A stretch of 64,000 bases of DNA. Source: Candidatus Nanopelagicales bacterium (GTDB lineage Bacteria > Actinomycetota > Actinomycetes > S36-B12). Position 1 is the stretch's first letter; the number at the start of each line of letters is the position of its first letter. Location of the stretch: assembly GCA_030827125.1 (NCBI GenBank), contig JAURFD010000001.1, positions 19,258-83,257 on the forward strand, in the 5' to 3' direction. Position numbers and translations under genes: made by a program. Shown here piece after piece: positions 55,657 to 61,674 of the stretch. The notes under the pieces are model-generated. The model was not told where the DNA came from and searched no databases. It saw only the letters and a list, made by a program, of their open reading frames with translations.

Positions 55657-56691
55657 ATGACGCAGCCGCAGGCCCGCAACGCCACCTTTCGGTTCGGGGA
55701 TACCGCCATCCTCTCGGTTGAGCAGGTCGAAGCTCCCGAGGTCGTGACGTCTGCGTGGATCGATGAGCAACTCGCCGACACCTATGCGCGCCTGGATGTG
55801 CGGCCCGGCCTCCTTGAAGGACTCGCCGGGATCAAGGAACGTCGTTGGTGGCCCGAGGGCGTGTCGTTTGCCGACGCCGCCGCGATGGCTGGCCGCAAGG
55901 CACTGGACGCCGCTGGAGTTGAGCCGGGAGCCATTGGGCTCCTCATCGACACCGCCGTGTCGAGGGCCCATCTCGAACCCTCCGCGGCCGTCGACGTGCA
56001 CCACCAACTCGGCTTGCCACCGCACTGCATCAACTTCGATCTGTCCAACGCGTGTCTTGGCTTCGTCAACGGCATGCACCTCGCGGGCATGATGATCGAC
56101 TCGGGACAGATCGACTACGCGCTCATCGTCGACGGCGAGGGGTCCCGCGAATTGCAGGAGCGCACGATCGCGCGACTGCAGGGGCCGGACTCCGTCGCAG
56201 CGGACATCTTCGAAGATTTCGCGTCGCTCACCCTGGGTTCGGGTGGAGCCGCCATGGTTCTTGGTCGCGCGTCCACACATCCCGAGGGCCACCGCCTGGT
56301 CGGTGGTGCTTCCCGGGCCGCGACCGAGCACCACCGCATCTGCGTCGGCGACATGAACCGCATGGTCACCGACTCCCGGGCACTGTTGGAGGCGGGACTA
56401 CAACTGTCTGGAGAGTTGTGGAAGGAAGCGGCGGAGGATTTCGACTGGGCGGACCTGGACTGCTACGTCATCCACCAGGTGTCGAACGTCCACACCCAGG
56501 CCGTCTGCGCGGCTCTCGGCATTGACTCGAACCGCGTCCCGCTCACCTTCCCGATGTTCGGCAACATCGGACCTGCGTCGATCCCGGTGACGCTCGCTCT
56601 CCAAACCCAGGACTTGGTCCCCGGTCAGCGCATCGGCTGCCTCGGTATCGGCTCCGGTCTGAACGCCAGCGTCATCGAGATCGTCTGGTAG
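55657..56691 (+). CDS. oleA: OleA, head-to-head condensing thiolase-fold enzyme
   Basis: LEPS, NACLGF, TLGSG, HQVS, GNIGPAS, GIGSGLN; first gene of an ole-type operon. Confidence 0.85.
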   Translation: MTQPQARNATFRFGDTAILSVEQVEAPEVVTSAWIDEQLADTYARLDVRPGLLEGLAGIKERRWWPEGVSFADAAAMAGRKALDAAGVEPGAIGLLIDTAVSRAHLEPSAAVDVHHQLGLPPHCINFDLSNACLGFVNGMHLAGMMIDSGQIDYALIVDGEGSRELQERTIARLQGPDSVAADIFEDFASLTLGSGGAAMVLGRASTHPEGHRLVGGASRAATEHHRICVGDMNRMVTDSRALLEAGLQLSGELWKEAAEDFDWADLDCYVIHQVSNVHTQAVCAALGIDSNRVPLTFPMFGNIGPASIPVTLALQTQDLVPGQRIGCLGIGSGLNASVIEIVW

Positions 56692-59240
56692 TGGCGATGA
56701 CGGCTGCGCACCTGCCGCCCGCCCTCCCCGGACTTCGCCCCGAATGGTCGCGGCTCGTCGACCTGCCGGGACGCGGCACGATGCACGTCCTCGAACGACC
56801 CGCGCAGGGCGATCCCGAGATCACTGTGCTTGCCGTTCACGGCAATCCCACCTGGTCCTACCTGTGGCGCGCTCTCCTCGAGAACGCACCCGCCACGTGG
56901 CGGGTCATTGCGGTCGACCAGTTGGGCATGGGCTACTCCTCCCGGGGCGAGACGCGACGGCTCGCCGATCGGGTGGACGATCTGGGCGCACTCACGGAGG
57001 CGCTCAGTGTCGGCGGCCCGGTGGTGACGGTGGCGCACGACTGGGGTGGACCGGTCTCCCTCGGGTGGGTGCTCGACCATCGAGAACTCGTGGTGGGTGT
57101 GGTGCTCACGAACACTGCGGTGCATCAGCCCGAAGGGGCGCGCACCCCGGGGTTGATCCGGTTGGCGCGTTCACGGGCACTGCTGCCCTGGGTCACTCGC
57201 GGGAGTCGTGCCTTCGTTCGTGGCACCACAGCGCTGTCGCGACAGTTGCCGCGCGAGGTCATCGACGCGTACGGCGCTCCGTATGCCACGGCGGAGCAAC
57301 GCGGAGCCGTCATGGACTTCGTCGCTGACATCCCCCTCGAAGCCACCCACCCCAGCGCACCCACCCTCGACGCCATCGCCGAAGGTGTGACGCACTTCGA
57401 TGATCTGCCGGTGTTCTTGGCGTGGGGTTCCGACGACCCGGTGTTTTCTGATCGGTACCTACGCGATCTCGTTGCTCGGATGCCGCACGCCGACGTACAT
57501 CGCTACGAGGGAGCACGGCACCTTGTTACTGAAGACGACGCACGCTGCATCCCGGACATCATCACGTGGATCCAACGACTCCGTGATGGTCGGCGGCCGG
57601 TGCCGGCGTCGATCGGAGTTGACCTCCCGGACATGAATTCCGGTCTGCGGCAGCGAACGCACGACACCGGTGTGGCGATCGCGGACATGCGCTCGGAACT
57701 GCGGGTGAGTTGGGAGCGGCTTGCGACGCGCACCGAGGAGATCGCGTCCGGTCTGGTGGCGTGGGGGGTGCGTCCAGGGGACCGCATCGCCCTCCTGGTG
57801 ACGCCGGGTCCGGACCTCATCGCGTCGGTCTACGCGGCGTGGCGTATCGGTGCCGTCGTCGTCGTGGCTGACTCGGGTTTGGGTTTGCGTGGCATGCGCC
57901 GTGCATTGCGATCCGCCGAGCCGACTCACGTCATCGGTATCCCGGCCGGGCTCGGACTCGCTCGCACGTTGGAGATTCCGGGGCGGCGGTTCTTGGTCGG
58001 TCGACCGGGTGCGGCCGCACGTCTCCTCGGCGCCGATGCCACCTTGTCCGAGGTCGCGCGTCGCGGACGCGAGGAGTCCGGTGTCGTACCGACCACGGCG
58101 CAGTCCGACCCGGATGCGGATGCCCTTGTCGCGTTCACCTCCGGTGCCACAGGGCCGGCCAAGGGCGTCGTCTACACCGAGGGTCGACTGCGGGCCTTGC
58201 GTGAGGCCTTGCGCGATGCTTACTCAATCACTGAGTCCGACGCGCTCGTGGCCGCCTTCGCGCCGTGGGCTGTGCTCGGTCCCGCGCTGGGGATTCCCTC
58301 CGCCATTCCCGATATGGACCTCACCGATGCCTCGACGTTGACGTCGGCATCCTTCGCGGACGCAACGGCGGCGGTGGCCGGAACCCTCATGTGGGTTTCA
58401 CCGACCGGGCTGCGCGGAATTGTGTCCACGGCGGACTTCCTGACGTCGCCCCAGCGGTCTGCACTGCAGACCCTCCGCGAGATCCTCGTCGCGGGTGCGC
58501 CCGTGCCGGTGGAACTGCTCCAGCGCATGTCGGACATGGTTCCGGGTGCTCGCTGCAGTACGCCGTACGGCATGACGGAGGCACTCCCGCTCACTGAGAC
58601 CGACCTCGGTGAACTCGCCAGCGCCGAAGGCTCCGGGGTGTTGGTGGGTCGTCCACTCGACGGGGTGTCCATCGCCATCGCCCCGCTCGATTCCATGGGT
58701 GCCTCGGCTGATGACGCCACGGAGGAGGCGGACGTCACCGGCGAGATCATTGTGCGAGCGCCGTGGATGAGAGACCGCTATGACCGGCGTTGGGGCGTCC
58801 AGGACCGGGCCGACACCCCGCGCGGCTGGCATCGCACGGGGGATGTGGGCCACCTCGACCGAGACGGACGGTTGTGGGTGGAAGGTCGATTGGCCCACGT
58901 GGTCACGACGGCTGACGGTCCCGTGACACCGGTGGCGGTCGAACTCGCGGCCCAGCGTCGCGCCGGTGCGGACCTCGCGGCCTGTGTCGGCATAGGGCCC
59001 GTAGGGGCGCAGGCGGTGGCCGTCGCTGTCCAACTGCCCGGTCCGTCAATGGCCATTGCTGACGTCGAACTGTCCATGCGGGTCCGTGACGCGGTACGCG
59101 CGGCTACGGGAGTGGAGGTGGCCGCTGTCCTCACCATGCGCGAGATTCCCGTGGATGTGCGCCATCGGTCCAAGGTAAATCGCACGGCCGTCGCCGAGGA
59201 GGCTGCCGCGTTGTTATCCGGTGACGGAGACGATGACTGA
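56691..59240 (+). CDS. oleBC: OleBC fusion (beta-lactone decarboxylase plus beta-lactone synthetase)
   Basis: HGNPTWS and HDWGG (HLD-like hydrolase), then FTSGATGPAKG, YGMTE, HRTGDVG (ANL ligase). Confidence 0.85.
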   Translation: MAMTAAHLPPALPGLRPEWSRLVDLPGRGTMHVLERPAQGDPEITVLAVHGNPTWSYLWRALLENAPATWRVIAVDQLGMGYSSRGETRRLADRVDDLGALTEALSVGGPVVTVAHDWGGPVSLGWVLDHRELVVGVVLTNTAVHQPEGARTPGLIRLARSRALLPWVTRGSRAFVRGTTALSRQLPREVIDAYGAPYATAEQRGAVMDFVADIPLEATHPSAPTLDAIAEGVTHFDDLPVFLAWGSDDPVFSDRYLRDLVARMPHADVHRYEGARHLVTEDDARCIPDIITWIQRLRDGRRPVPASIGVDLPDMNSGLRQRTHDTGVAIADMRSELRVSWERLATRTEEIASGLVAWGVRPGDRIALLVTPGPDLIASVYAAWRIGAVVVVADSGLGLRGMRRALRSAEPTHVIGIPAGLGLARTLEIPGRRFLVGRPGAAARLLGADATLSEVARRGREESGVVPTTAQSDPDADALVAFTSGATGPAKGVVYTEGRLRALREALRDAYSITESDALVAAFAPWAVLGPALGIPSAIPDMDLTDASTLTSASFADATAAVAGTLMWVSPTGLRGIVSTADFLTSPQRSALQTLREILVAGAPVPVELLQRMSDMVPGARCSTPYGMTEALPLTETDLGELASAEGSGVLVGRPLDGVSIAIAPLDSMGASADDATEEADVTGEIIVRAPWMRDRYDRRWGVQDRADTPRGWHRTGDVGHLDRDGRLWVEGRLAHVVTTADGPVTPVAVELAAQRRAGADLAACVGIGPVGAQAVAVAVQLPGPSMAIADVELSMRVRDAVRAATGVEVAAVLTMREIPVDVRHRSKVNRTAVAEEAAALLSGDGDDD

Positions 59241-60231
59241 CCGGGTCGTCGTCACCGGGGGAGCCGGCGTCGTGGGGGGAGCCGCCGCGCGTGCCCTCGC
59301 GGCGAGCGGTTTTGACGTGGTCAGTGTGCAGCGGGGACCCATCAGTGACGAGATGCGCACGCTCGGGATCCAGGAGTATCGCGCTGACATCACAGGCGGC
59401 GCCGCTGGACTGGTGGACGCTCTGCGCGGAGCGAGCGCCGTCGTGCACGCAGCCGCGCGCGTGGACATCATCGGTCCCTGGGAAGAGTTCGAACGCATCA
59501 ACGTTCACGGCACGGCCGCGGTTGTCGAGGCGGCGCAAATCGCTGGAATTGAGCGCCTTGTCATGGTGTCGTCACCGTCCGTTGCGCACGCGGGCCGGTC
59601 CCTGGTCGGGGCACCCGCCGGAACTGCTGACCCGGACGCCGCACGCGGCAACTACGCCCGAAGCAAGGCCATGGCCGAGTTGGTGGCCCTCGAGGCGGAC
59701 TCCGGTGATCTGGCAGTGATCGTGCTGCGGCCCCATCTCGTCTGGGGGCCGGGTGACCGACAGCTGACGGAGCGCATCGTCGAGCGCGCCCGCGCGGGGC
59801 GCCTGGTCACGATCGGCTCTGGTGCGGCTCTCATCGATACGACCTACATCGACAACGCGGGTGACGCCATCGTCGCGGCCGTTCGCCGCGCGCAACTTCC
59901 GCAGGTGCGGGGTCGGTCGTTCGTCGTCTCCAACGGCGAACCCAGAACTGTCGTCGAGATGCTCACGCGGATCGCGTGGGCCGGTGGCGCGGATGGCCCC
60001 GCGCGGTCCATCCCCTTCCCGGTGGCCAAGGCGGGCGGGCGCGTGGTGGAGCAGTGGTGGGAGCGGACAGGGCGGGCCGGCGAGCCTCCGGTGACGTCGT
60101 TCCTCGCCGAGCAGCTCGCCACCGCGCACTGGTTCGACCAGCGTGAGGTCCGCACAGCCCTGCAATGGCACCCGCGGGTGTCGATCGAGGAGGGCTTCGG
60201 GCGCCTGGCGGCGCATCTCGGCGGTCGGTAG
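59233..60231 (+). CDS. oleD: OleD, 2-alkyl-3-oxoalkanoate reductase (extended SDR)
   Basis: TGGAGVVG, SSPSV, YARSK, RPHLVWGPGD. Confidence 0.83.
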   Translation: MTDRVVVTGGAGVVGGAAARALAASGFDVVSVQRGPISDEMRTLGIQEYRADITGGAAGLVDALRGASAVVHAAARVDIIGPWEEFERINVHGTAAVVEAAQIAGIERLVMVSSPSVAHAGRSLVGAPAGTADPDAARGNYARSKAMAELVALEADSGDLAVIVLRPHLVWGPGDRQLTERIVERARAGRLVTIGSGAALIDTTYIDNAGDAIVAAVRRAQLPQVRGRSFVVSNGEPRTVVEMLTRIAWAGGADGPARSIPFPVAKAGGRVVEQWWERTGRAGEPPVTSFLAEQLATAHWFDQREVRTALQWHPRVSIEEGFGRLAAHLGGR

Positions 60232-60328
60232 CCCGCGACGACCCATCGCGCCAGGAGCGAAATCTTCCGGATGCCCAACCGCCGTTCGGCGTGGCACCAC
60301 GATCTCGAGGCACATATGCAGTAGACAA

Positions 60329-60365
60329 GGAAAAGGCCCCTCGAAGTATGAGTTCGAGGGGCCTT
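60329..60365 (-). terminator. Strong intrinsic terminator, U-tract on the minus strand
   Basis: 13-bp perfect stem AAGGCCCCTCGAA/TTCGAGGGGCCTT followed by TTCC on the minus strand. Confidence 0.8.
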
Positions 60366-60606
60366 GCCCTTGGATCGGCGCGTTCTGCGGCTCTCCTTGC
60401 GGAGGAACGCCGGCGTGCCTGCCTGCGCCCGTCGCACCCGTTGCCGGGGCGCCGCCGCGATGGCCCGAAAGCCATCCGCCTGCCTATCCGCGTCGAGCCT
60501 CAAGGTCCGGGTCACGGCACATGCCCCGGACGGTTGCCCGTGACCAGGTTTGCACCCGGTCACCTCTTCGGCTTCCCGCACCTTCCGGTTGCCCGGTCGG
60601 TGGGAT
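60329..60606 (-). ncRNA. Candidate structured non-coding RNA (~280 nt), family unassigned
   Basis: Five GCAA-loop hairpins and one UUCG hairpin on the minus strand, upstream promoter-like sequence, downstream terminator, no credible CDS. Confidence 0.65.
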
Positions 60607-60608
60607 AG

Positions 60609-60660
60609 TTCTACTCCCGACAGCAAGCACCGACAAGGGGTTTTCTCCAATTTTTTGAAC
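60609..60660 (-). promoter_or_regulatory. Putative sigma-A promoter with A-rich upstream tract for the candidate ncRNA
   Basis: Minus strand: AAAAAATTGGAGAAAACCCC-TTGTCG-N17-TAGAAC(T); the -10 is imperfect. Confidence 0.5.
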
Positions 60661-60738
60661 AACTTTGGCCACCTTCGTCACACCGATTTCACTGTGTCCC
60701 AGCAGCCGCGTGGGTTGCGCGAATCTGGGGGGAGCGCG

Positions 60739-61674
60739 ATGCCGGAAGAGCCGACGTACCCTGACGTCATGGGTTCGGTCGGCTCCATCATTTTCCTGCA
60801 CGGAGTGGGGGGCGTGCGCGCCGATTGGGCTCGGCCGCTGGCCGATGTCGAGGCCGGTGTGGCTCTCACCGCGCCGACATACGCCGACCTTCTGAGGCCC
60901 GATGCCCTCGTCCGGCATCGCCGCCCCCGGTGGAGTGCTCCGGTGCACCGTGACCTGGCTGATGCGCCAGGTCAGGCCGACCCACCGGATGACCGCGACG
61001 TCGCGCGGTTGACCTATCTCGAGCGGCAGCGCCTGCTGGCCGAGCACGTGCGCGCGAGCGGAGACGCCCTGCCGGAGGGGATGTCGTGGCCCTCGGGGCT
61101 CCCGCGTCCCGGCGATCTCTCGGCGCGCCTGCCCCTGGCGCGCATCGTGCGCAGCTCCCTGTTTGGCTTAGACCAGGTAGGCCGCTACCTCGACGACGAC
61201 GAACGCCGCGATGCCGTGGCGCATCGGGTGTTGCCATCGGTCCTCATCGCCCCCGCGCCGCGGGTGATCATCGCGCACTCGTTGGGCTCGATCGTGGCCC
61301 TCGACCTGCTCGCCGACCCGCGAGTCGAAGTCGATCTGCTCATCACCGTCGGCAGCCCCCTCGGTCATGAGGCGGTCCATGGTGATCTCGCCGTCGCCGA
61401 CACCTTCCCCTACGACCGCGTGGGGGGTTGGCTCAATGTCGTCCACCTCCTCGATCCCGTCCCACTCGGTCGAGGGCTTCATCCGAGATTCCCCGCGGCG
61501 CACGACGCCTTCGTGCCCATGGTCGGCGGCGAGACATCGGCGGCGGAGACTCTCCCCAAACTCGTGAGCACCGCCGGACGTGCGCTCACCGCCCACCTCG
61601 ATTCGACGTACCTCGCGACCGGTACCGTCCGAAGTGCTATCGCCCACGTCTGGCAGTCGGGAGTCACAGCATGA
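60739..61674 (+). CDS. Alpha/beta-hydrolase-fold protein
   Basis: IFLHGVG, AHSLGS nucleophile elbow, ITVGSPL, LDPV, late His. Confidence 0.72.
   Translation: MPEEPTYPDVMGSVGSIIFLHGVGGVRADWARPLADVEAGVALTAPTYADLLRPDALVRHRRPRWSAPVHRDLADAPGQADPPDDRDVARLTYLERQRLLAEHVRASGDALPEGMSWPSGLPRPGDLSARLPLARIVRSSLFGLDQVGRYLDDDERRDAVAHRVLPSVLIAPAPRVIIAHSLGSIVALDLLADPRVEVDLLITVGSPLGHEAVHGDLAVADTFPYDRVGGWLNVVHLLDPVPLGRGLHPRFPAAHDAFVPMVGGETSAAETLPKLVSTAGRALTAHLDSTYLATGTVRSAIAHVWQSGVTA

Follow-up and report, generated by a model that had tools for sequence, protein, structure and literature searches.

Actinomycetota were, to our knowledge, long held to be without 6S RNA; Ms1 and CoRP then revealed that RNA-polymerase-binding RNAs native to this phylum exist. 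For several orders, including that of the genome studied here, we still know of no assigned RNA-polymerase-binding RNA. Ms1 (RF02566; MTS2823 / scr3559) is a free-standing, highly expressed actinobacterial RNA of about 230-300 nt with an intrinsic terminator that sits between the genes for HAD-IB (or Ssd/6C) and Fic, and 6S RNA (RF00013), which is comparable in size, is a structured RNA that acts in trans and is both abundant and stable. According to PMC4191392, Ms1 folds into one long hairpin that has a central bubble, and the rod with a central bubble, formed by both 6S RNA and Ms1, mimics open (promoter) DNA. As described in PMC11077062, CoRP RNA is a lineage-restricted, abundant structured RNA of 516 nt that is encoded between tRNA genes, has been reported from Corynebacterium only, and binds RNA polymerase in this actinobacterial host without Ms1 and 6S. 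By this description, it is a precedent for new types of RNA-polymerase-binding RNAs in the phylum.

The window analyzed here, a stretch of 64,000 nucleotides (64 kb) of actinobacterial DNA, contains on its minus strand (60601-60329) a free-standing RNA gene with its own promoter, eight hairpins (five with GCAA and one with UUCG loops), and a 13-bp intrinsic terminator. Unlike Ms1, it is located between oleD, with which it is convergent, and a divergent gene for a 313-aa protein of no family. An A/T-rich, UP-element-like tract (60641-60667, minus strand) is found just 5' of the -35-like hexamer TTGTCG (60631-60636), which is directly preceded by CCCC and separated by a 17-nt spacer from the -10-like hexamer TAGAAC (60608-60613). 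A generic sigma-70 scan called 0 sites in this region, and we call the promoter because it is conserved across relatives: CCCTTG(C/T) at the -35 position is found in 21 of 21 genus loci, the -10 hexamer is likewise supported by conservation, and an A/T-rich block at the UP-element-like position is kept in the genus alignment as well as in other families. The TTGTCG-N17-TAGAAC arrangement with its A-rich tract, which had been noted by a sequence-only reading of this DNA, thus stands as a conserved sequence, but not as a promoter that a simple scan would call. The position of the -10 hexamer suggests a start near 60601, and the predicted primary transcript of about 273 nt (60329-60601, minus strand) would end in the U-run that follows the terminator. 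A terminator scan found a single site at 60365-60333 of the minus strand, with 13 pairs (8 G-C) and the 7-nt loop CUCAUAC at 60352-60346, in agreement with the 13-bp terminator seen by the same reading.

The hairpins of this stretch are more clustered than expected by chance. If strict 4-bp Watson-Crick stems are required, the minus strand of the 64 kb contains seven GCAA hairpins, four of which fall into these 278 nt; the plus strand has none, and no 278-nt stretch elsewhere in the window reaches four GNRA/UUCG hairpins. The calculated folding energy was -158.9 kcal/mol for the minus strand (z = -5.5) and -141.1 kcal/mol for the plus strand (z = -3.2). The own genome, which is 97% complete, contains one full copy and one different-bodied relative on another contig; dispersed repeats of the element, which would have indicated a MITE or REP, were not found in it.

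RNA-library data were available for the same stretch. Nineteen of the 20 runs listed as holding part of it are RNA libraries, from 12 studies, and short contigs of 170-256 nt from RNA libraries of four studies lie within 60369-60588 with 0-1 differences and at least 99% identity (X1, 60375-60588; X5, 60369-60588; X7, 60377-60587; X9, 60376-60545). The word depths of these contigs, which give no strand, ends, or level, were 14-130 in four runs of four studies, and RNA libraries may contain some DNA. Environmental RNA libraries contain this RNA in abundance. The transcript for which the sequence-only reading had suggested a search is represented by contigs, although its minus-strand origin does not follow from them. 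Adapter-like letters abut X1 and X5 at both ends. The contig end at 60588/60587 falls into the loop of H1, 12-13 nt inside the predicted start, and could be a processed 5' end or an effect of library or assembly. No contig of the four RNA runs covered the flanks (59800-60368 and 60589-61200), which carries no evidential weight.

The element is situated directly downstream of oleD, which might also use the element's terminator. In principle, it need not be an RNA gene of its own but could belong to the 3' UTR or terminator of oleD, be a repeat of the REP/MITE type, or consist of hairpins assembled by chance. This reading is barely conceivable and already contradicted, as the element is on the strand opposite to oleD with its own conserved promoter, occurs as one copy per genome, shows covariation and G-U pairs that fit the minus strand, and is itself matched by the RNA-library contigs. 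It is almost certain that the stretch is a real, structured, and undescribed small RNA gene. The inference of the sequence-only reading, a free-standing minus-strand structured RNA, is supported, as none of the outcomes that it had named as contrary was obtained.

The predicted fold, which is based on energy minimization and covariation, starts with a 5' hairpin, followed by two multi-branched domains whose hairpins are capped by GNRA or UUCG loops; a covarying contact of the H4 and H7 loops probably clasps the two domains. The 5' hairpin H1 (60576-60604, minus strand as all following) contains CCGG-GCAA-CCGG at 60596-60585 with the GCAA loop at 60592-60589. Domain 1 (60505-60563; helices 4, 5, and 7 of our covariation count) comprises H2, GTGACCGGGT-GCAA-ACCTGGTCAC (60563-60540), H3, ACGG-GCAA-CCGT (60541-60530; 60539-60532 in the fold listing), and H4 (60531-60505), whose loop carries GUGCC. 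Domain 2 (60393-60476; helices 11-15) comprises H5, GATGGCT-TTCG-GGCCATC with a UUCG loop (60476-60459), H6 (60451-60433), which includes CCCG-GCAA-CGGG at 60448-60437 and is nearly invariant in the genus, H7 (60430-60405), and H8, CTCC-GCAA-GGAG (60404-60393). All six hairpins that had been listed from the sequence alone were recovered at their minus-strand coordinates, and so was the repeated AGGCAGGC at 60486-60479 and 60424-60417. Only the GCGTTC/GAACGC helix, which had been thought to enclose the last GCAA hairpin, is absent from the conserved fold, in which GCGUUC instead has its partner upstream and forms the outer stem of H7. The block GGCGCCCCGGCAACGGGUGCGACGG in domain 2 shows no or almost no variation among 21 sequences.

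Homologues with compensatory changes, which the sequence-only reading had named as a check, were found. In the proposed structure, 87.8% of the cells were paired, compared to 79.8% in shuffles, and slid controls reached 36-46%. Changes on both sides were seen in 47 of 93 pairs versus 23.6 in shuffles, with 0 of 500 shuffles reaching 47; these pair counts understate or misstate the G000 clade, the domain 1 of which is misaligned by MAFFT and by the body-only covariance model, and the hairpin-by-hairpin correspondence of domain 1 for this clade was taken from a separate segmented alignment. Helix 1, the H1 homologue with a GAAA or GCAA loop, was 95% paired with 3 of 7 pairs changing on both sides, and the terminator stem was 99.4% paired with 9 of 15 such pairs, its loop being invariant. 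Numerous switches from G-U to G-C or A-U are compatible with the minus strand alone. The hairpin caps vary, with GAAA/GCAA in H1, GCAA/GAAA/UUCG/UUAA in H5, and GCAA/GAAA/UCAC in H8.

The H4 loop GUGCC (60516-60520, minus strand) is complementary to the H7 loop GGCAC (60415-60419), and this kissing contact (60520-60516 with 60419-60415; helix 8) covaries through four sequence variants. Over 21 species, the H4:H7 loop pairs were GUGUCG:CGACAC or CGACGC, GUGUCU:AGACAC or AGACGC, AUGUCG:CGACAU, and GUGCCU:AGGCAC, with compensatory variants at 3 of 6 positions. In the helix 8 count, three rows of the G000 clade are paired through a misaligned stretch, and the true loop pairing was taken from the loop comparison. 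An intramolecular and an intermolecular contact are both compatible with these data. The two loops could therefore join molecules into dimers or larger assemblies, or the GNRA-rich two-domain fold, abundant as it is in environmental RNA libraries, could be a ribozyme or an RNP scaffold. We regard such a self-assembling or catalytic RNA as very unlikely, as there is no conserved unpaired core of the ribozyme kind and known cage-forming RNAs are larger than the RNA of the window.

BLAST detected homologues in 21 of 24 other genomes of the genus, where they occupy the same locus convergent with oleD. R1, a covariance model of the window's form that covers only the RNA body and not the full length, matched the window at 60590-60369 (86.5 bits, E = 4e-22), 20 further loci over the full model length, and one truncated locus. 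In a family sample of 81 genomes, R1 matched 6 of 7 congeners; weak matches were also obtained in two sister genera, in 2 of 4 genomes of one and 2 of 6 of the other. The two-domain form is thus restricted to this genus and a small number of sister genera.

Rfam 15 gave no match in the whole 64-kb window at gathering thresholds, and only chance-level matches were obtained for 60200-60760 at E <= 10, in line with the earlier suspicion that this is not a known RNA family. The sRNA positions of the wider group described below were also without Rfam matches (18 loci at gathering thresholds and 10 loci at E <= 0.5). The raiA motif, an orphan structured RNA of about 200 nt, resembles our RNA in being highly structured and abundant and in having pseudoknots or tertiary contacts, but no Rfam model, raiA included, matched the window or 28 group loci, and our group has no fixed gene association. 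6S RNA was found neither in the window nor, at E <= 1, in the own genome, and its rod with a central bubble differs from the two multi-branched domains and the kissing loop proposed here; by analogy, the RNA of the window is possibly a functional analogue of 6S in a genome without detectable 6S. We found no description of this RNA in print, and the Ms1 candidate list of PMC9130861 (824 species, supplementary tables) might include some group loci.

Since size and promoter type are similar and the canonical Ms1 locus of the own genome is without Ms1, a relocated Ms1 orthologue was considered. The Ms1 promoters (8 canonical and 20 further loci) have a C/T-rich TT(G/C)C at -35 and TA(G/C)A(A/C)N, usually without the final T, at -10, as does the RNA of the window. 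However, RF02566, which scores 235 bits on a mycobacterial locus, did not match 60200-60760 even at E <= 10, and its best score in the whole own genome was 13.4 bits, elsewhere, against a gathering threshold of 162 bits. The Ms1 core CCCACGCG ... CACGCYUGGUARCC, which we derived from canonical loci, was present in 6 of 8 of these and in 81 of 401 class genomes (4 of the 81 being unpublished); neither of its two motifs occurs in the RNA of the window or elsewhere in the own genome. The own genome has its Ssd/HAD-IB/Fic locus on contig C44, and this locus has no room for Ms1. None of 30 group loci from other taxa, nor 2 loci of family f10, had HAD-IB, Ssd, or Fic within 1.5 kb, and group members are far from Ssd and dnaA in five genomes. 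The fold of the window's RNA, as predicted by energy minimization and supported by covariation, has no rod or bubble. Orthology to Ms1 was therefore rejected as highly improbable and already contradicted by core motifs, fold, locus, and the co-occurrence of the group with true Ms1, and the body is not homologous even though the promoter type resembles that of Ms1. The sequence-only reading had come to the same view of Ms1.

A wider actinobacterial group, which was beyond the view of that reading, shares the promoter and the terminator. We defined it by a promoter TTGNNN-N16-18-TA[GC]A[AC]N that is located 140-450 nt upstream of a terminator with the motif CCCY-NNN-ACUCAURCU-NNN-RGGG and the invariant loop ACUCAURC. 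The window has this promoter (TTGTCG-N17-TAGAAC) 247 nt before the terminator motif at 60365-60333. The terminator motif was present in 61 of 401 class genomes, covering 37 of 175 genera, with one match for the reversed control, and the promoter signature was upstream of 78 of 116 examined terminator-motif sites. Both signals recur in many actinobacterial families, including the cultured genera Kribbella, Nocardioides, and Phycicoccus, around dissimilar GNRA-rich bodies of 150-450 nt. Body homology across lineages was not detected: R1 does not match the family f10 loci, and R2, a body model of the short form built from 26 sequences, does not match the RNA of the window even at E <= 1. An analogous long-range GGUGNC/GNCACC pairing is found in the window form and the short form. 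No neighbor gene is conserved over 84 loci, the largest cluster being 15 of 84.

A base-pairing (antisense-type) sRNA would use exposed conserved loops, chiefly the invariant terminator loop ACUCAUAC, to pair with mRNAs in trans. The loop contains CUCA, presumably a YUNR-like turn, and its invariance over 37 of 175 sampled genera while the stem covaries is unusual for a mere terminator; a free-standing gene without a fixed neighbor is also what one finds with trans-acting sRNAs. However, the own genome has no excess of the complement GTATGAGT (10 sites versus 26 expected), two of the 10 sites are the opposite strand of the hairpins themselves, and none has an obvious ribosome-binding context. 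Covarying helices and the kissing loop take up most of the RNA and leave little conserved single-stranded sequence, and we consider antisense action unlikely. Even an ordinary base-pairing sRNA would still constitute a widespread family that is missing from Rfam.

The number of G-GNRA-C hairpins varies among the bodies of 150-450 nt, and some genomes have tandem gene pairs (L043, L044, L141), three terminator motifs inside 1.1 kb (G044), or a long variant with internally duplicated hairpin modules (L078). Constant expression signals around a variable body are typical of sponge RNAs, and many similar GNRA-capped hairpins might titrate an RNA-binding protein in the manner of CsrB/RsmZ, with a hairpin number that differs by lineage. 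Such a sponge is quite improbable here, as sponge sites keep their loop sequence (GGA in CsrB/RsmZ), whereas GNRA, UUCG, or UCAC caps are interchangeable in H1, H5, and H8, and the covarying multi-branch fold with its kissing loop points to one defined architecture. We know of no actinobacterial CsrA protein.

We tentatively favor an abundant, trans-acting, protein-binding RNA that possibly acts on the transcription machinery, a reading by analogy that we hold to be plausible but somewhat short of probable. The defined fold, and not a linear seed, would be the functional unit, and the RNA would act in trans by binding a protein, with which its free-standing gene, its one full copy, and the lack of a conserved neighbor over 84 loci are consistent. 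The likeliest partner would be the transcription machinery, with 6S, Ms1, and CoRP RNAs as models, because the RNA has an Ms1-type promoter and its genome yielded neither Ms1 nor 6S; promoter likeness and Ms1/6S absence make for a weak link by analogy. Some observations do not sit easily with this mechanism. The fold departs from the 6S/Ms1 rod with a central bubble, and the bodies are too unlike between lineages, with R2 missing the window's RNA, which would be odd for a conserved protein interface. The Ms1-like promoter could also merely reflect a common class of strong actinobacterial promoters. The group terminator motif and the Ms1 core motifs co-occur in 19 of the 61 motif-carrying genomes, including G118, G360, and G376, three genomes that were likewise seen to have the promoter, and the RNA is therefore not simply a replacement of Ms1. 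With its abundance in environmental RNA libraries and with a fold and a tertiary contact that are backed by covariation, the RNA of the window is a concrete candidate for the orders that have no assigned RNA-polymerase-binding RNA.

At least two DnaA-box-like GTGGAY motifs were present within 200 nt upstream of 74 of 122 group members, compared to 1 of 118 downstream controls. These clusters before most members and the class-wide invariant terminator loop over a changing body are hard to explain by chance and suggest an unrecognized link between replication status and RNA-based regulation. One could thus imagine a new class of growth- or replication-coupled regulatory RNAs of Actinomycetota, in which Ms1-type promoters flanked by DnaA boxes drive a kissing-loop-clasped particle that would bind RNA polymerase, or else some other core machine, and occupy the niche of 6S and Ms1 in lineages without either, or would form multimers via the H4 and H7 loops; we consider this larger picture doubtful, albeit conceivable. 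A location at oriC, which the boxes had brought to mind, was rejected, as the RNA was 90 kb to 1.4 Mb away from dnaA or on another contig in five genomes. The boxes are also not a feature in common with Ms1, as the sequences upstream of 20 Ms1 genes had 0.55 boxes per 420 nt. The 200 nt upstream of the window's RNA have no GTGGAY box, as a mere 95 nt separate the -35 hexamer from the start of the divergent gene, and the genus alignment shows that the congeners carry GTGAC repeats upstream instead.

On the minus strand, the element lies in the gap that separates oleD (59221-60231, plus strand) from a 313-aa gene (60733-61674, plus strand) whose protein has no Pfam or NCBIfam family. All hairpins proposed in the sequence-only reading were found in this gap at their positions on the minus strand, with GCAA loops in five cases and a UUCG loop in one. 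The proposed signals were likewise present: TTGTCG (60636-60631), a 17-nt spacer, and TAGAAC (60613-60608) form the promoter-like sequence on the minus strand, preceded by an A/T-rich tract (60667-60641, minus strand), and the 13-bp terminator with its 7-nt loop (60365-60333, minus strand) was the single site in a terminator scan. When strict 4-bp stems were required, four of the seven minus-strand GCAA hairpins of the 64-kb window fell within the 278-nt element and none occurred on the plus strand, and no 278-nt stretch of the window outside the element had as many as four GNRA or UUCG hairpins. The minus-strand fold reached -158.9 kcal/mol (z = -5.5), the plus-strand fold -141.1 kcal/mol (z = -3.2).

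The OleD model NF042422 matched the oleD product with E = 2.5e-88 and 296.6 bits, which is under the model's 580-bit cut-off. An 849-aa ORF (56691-59240) that fuses an alpha/beta-hydrolase to an AMP-binding part shares 20 nt with the start of oleD and looks like a fused OleB-OleC, and a DUF2252 protein is also encoded among the flanking genes. After its stop (60229-60231), the oleD frame continues (60232-60324) up to a second stop at 60322-60324, next to the sRNA terminator. In the congeners, the stretch adjoining the terminator is kept in a coding-like manner (GGAGCCACGCCG), and OleD of the own genome may be shortened at its C-terminus.

Independent folding of eight species yielded one common architecture, which consists of a first hairpin H1, a domain 1 whose closing stem encloses H2, H3, and H4, a domain 2 whose closing stem encloses H5 and an inner stem around H6, H7, and H8, and finally the terminator. 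In the G000 clade (three species), domain 1 was misaligned by MAFFT and the covariance model, and segmented alignment and direct reading were used instead. With the two-domain structure, 87.8% of the cells of alignment A1 were paired, compared to 79.8% in shuffles, and 47 of the 93 pairs had changes on both sides, compared to 23.6 in shuffles, none of the 500 of which reached 47. Sliding the partners by 1-3 columns as a control lowered the paired cells to 36-46%. Switches between G-U and G-C or A-U were frequent, and these are compatible with the minus strand only. The loops of H4 and H7 are mutually complementary and co-vary, with GUGUCG facing CGACAC or CGACGC, GUGUCU facing AGACAC or AGACGC, AUGUCG facing CGACAU, and GUGCCU facing AGGCAC. 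In the window, GUGCC (60520-60516) pairs with GGCAC (60419-60415), and the contact has compensatory changes at three of six positions. These analyses demonstrate a free-standing gene with a conserved, covarying two-domain fold and a tertiary contact. The fold itself would be the functional unit, and the RNA would act in trans on a putative protein partner; a self-assembling or catalytic RNA is a rival candidate. A CsrB-like sponge, which we considered as another alternative, is disfavored by the finding that the loops of the element are interchangeable caps.

One full copy is present in the own genome, an assembly of 82 contigs (2.6 Mb) that is 97% complete. BLAST matched the element in 21 of the 24 other genomes of the genus, nearly full-length in two (93% and 87% identity) and only with the 3' half in the remainder, and alignment of the whole gap revealed that all 21 congeners have the promoter block in common, along with the series of hairpins and the terminator. 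The locus is constant in the genus, with OleD at 23 and the 313-aa gene at 22 of 25 loci. Among 81 genomes sampled from the family, the covariance model R1 of the window's RNA form matched six of seven congeners and, weakly, two sister genera.

RNA libraries also contain the element, in the form of a discrete short contig. Such libraries make up 19 of the 20 runs listed with part of the stretch; these metatranscriptomes, from 12 studies, sampled estuary, sediment, fresh water, and sea water. Four of the runs, each from a different study, were compared with 59800-61200; their contigs give neither strand nor level, DNA can occur in an RNA library, and missing cover of the flanks carries no weight as evidence. 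The contigs covered 60375-60588 (X1, 256 nt, no difference), 60369-60588 (X5, 254 nt, one difference), 60377-60587 (X7, 211 nt, one difference), and 60376-60545 (X9, 170 nt, no difference), and a second X7 contig of 124 nt matched at 60425-60457 with three differences. The letters just outside both contig ends in X1 and X5 are presumably library adapter. At one end the contigs stop 12-13 nt short of the predicted start, at the other 4-12 nt ahead of the terminator stem, which could reflect processing but could equally be an effect of how libraries are made from an RNA this short and stable.

In agreement with the sequence-only reading, which had not recognized tmRNA, RNase P RNA, SRP RNA, or a riboswitch, no Rfam 15 family was found in the window, and none in the gap at E <= 10; 28 loci of relatives were also without a family match. 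A literature search that included the terminator-loop strings, with the supplementary lists of PMC9130861 outside its scope, found no description of the RNA, and we rate it as a new family within the known kind of abundant structured bacterial sRNAs. In a mycobacterial genome, true Ms1 (RF02566) was found with 235 bits between HAD-IB and Fic, adjoining Ssd and 6C RNA, and its cores CCCACGCG and CACGCYTGGTARCC were seen when the HAD-IB/Fic gap was read in seven other lineages. At strict spacing, the cores occurred in 81 of 401 class genomes, including four unpublished ones (G401, G070, G062, G333), or in 77 of 397 without these. The own genome has the canonical Ms1 neighborhood of CpaF-type ATPase, Ssd, HAD-IB, and Fic (contig C44:60147-65985, locus L033), but there HAD-IB is directly followed by an FUSC_2 gene and 0.9 kb of coding-looking sequence, and the FUSC_2 gene and a 307-aa ORF without a family stand where Ms1 would be. 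The own genome has no Ms1 model match (best 13.4 bits) and no Ms1 core motif, and 6C RNA and 6S were not found anywhere in it. The absence of Ms1 agrees with PMC9130861, which reports that Actinomyces, Bifidobacterium, Corynebacterium, and Brevibacterium have Ms1-syntenic gaps too short for Ms1. The suspicion that the window's RNA is not Ms1 was borne out, and Ms1 was rejected as its identity: cores, locus, and fold all differ, the Ms1 fold being a rod-with-bubble (PMC4191392).

The RNA belongs to a wider group. Two loci in another family of the order matched at the terminator only (100% over 31 nt and 91% over 32 nt), and their promoter block is the same as that of the element. The terminator motif CCCY-NNN-ACTCATRCT-NNN-RGGG occurred in 61 of 401 class genomes and 37 of 175 genera, usually with one to three sites per genome, and the reversed motif gave one match as a control. 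Among the matches listed for named genomes were Kribbella, Nocardioides, Phycicoccus, Propionibacteriaceae, Nanopelagicales, Frankiaceae, Jatrophihabitantaceae, and others, and the few listed outside the phylum were taken as chance. Sites complementary to the terminator loop were not enriched, which speaks against a base-pairing sRNA that acts through this invariant loop. At 78 of 116 motif sites, a promoter TTGNNN-N16-18-TA[GC]A[AC]N was located 140-450 nt upstream. This promoter type is the same as that of Ms1 genes (L066-L073 and L208-L227, many lineages), which have a C/T-rich TT(G/C)C -35, a spacer of about 17 nt, and a -10 of TA(G/C)A(A/C)N, in which the closing T expected of a sigma-A promoter is usually missing. 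The 123 distinct group RNAs have main sizes of about 185-200 nt and 245-290 nt, with outliers to about 470 nt. The short form covaries in a fold of its own, with both-side changes in 22 of 23 predicted pairs, and has a long-range GGUGACG/CGUCACC complementarity analogous to the window's form. Homology between the two bodies is not demonstrable: R1 left the neighboring family unmatched, and R2, modeled on 26 short-form bodies, did not find the window's RNA. Common to the group are the promoter, the invariant-loop terminator, and a GNRA-rich, loop-loop-clasped style. No neighbor gene is conserved over 84 loci (largest cluster 15), and in five genomes the group RNA is distant from Ssd and dnaA.

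Upstream of the group promoters, GTGGAY/RTCCAC hexamers averaged 1.87 per 200 nt, compared to 0.15 downstream, and at least two were present in 74 of 122 members but only 1 of 118 controls. DnaA-box-like clusters of these hexamers, often complete TGTGGACAA-type matches, lie ahead of most group members (loci L036-L193; e.g., L044, L039, L065, and L036). These clusters are not at oriC, and unlike the promoter, they are not an Ms1 feature (0.55 per 420 nt at 20 Ms1 loci). The window has no such hexamer upstream of its promoter; its -35 is 95 nt away from the start of the divergent gene, and the congeners have GTGAC repeats in this place instead.

As the first candidate for the putative partner we consider the transcription machinery, because the promoter resembles that of Ms1, because neither 6S nor Ms1 is detectable in the own genome, and because CoRP (PMC11077062) shows that new RNA-polymerase-binding RNAs evolve in this phylum. 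Points against it are that the fold is no mimic of open DNA, that the bodies of the group diverge fast, and that the group and Ms1 co-occur in other genomes; a cross-tabulation found Ms1 cores in 19 of the 61 terminator-motif genomes, with the promoter also present in G118, G360, and G376. With its reach over tens of genera and several features still to be explained, the RNA is worth bench work.

A second gene of the own genome, outside the window (C64:8578-8845, minus strand; L228:1565-1850), is alike in promoter type and terminator but differs in its body, which is about 230 nt long (MFE -125.7 kcal/mol, z = -7.0). It occurs with 99-100% identity in only two of 24 congeners (G012 and G019), whereas the window's RNA is just 87% identical in G012. 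Two MAGs, one of Micrococcales and one of Bifidobacteriaceae, have similar bodies (L111, L090), and recent transfer or mis-binning of contig C64 is possible. Family f25 (L052-L060, L062, L063) has the terminator hairpin with the loop ACUCAUGC without a TAGAAA-type promoter, and at the two loci read (L053, L057) the hairpin adjoins coding-looking sequence; it may be a remnant, have another promoter type, or represent independent use of the hairpin. Finally, the Phycicoccus record L078 has a long variant, about 560 nt ahead of its terminator motif, in whose body UUCG-capped hairpin modules are duplicated internally, with a repeated module of about 40 nt.
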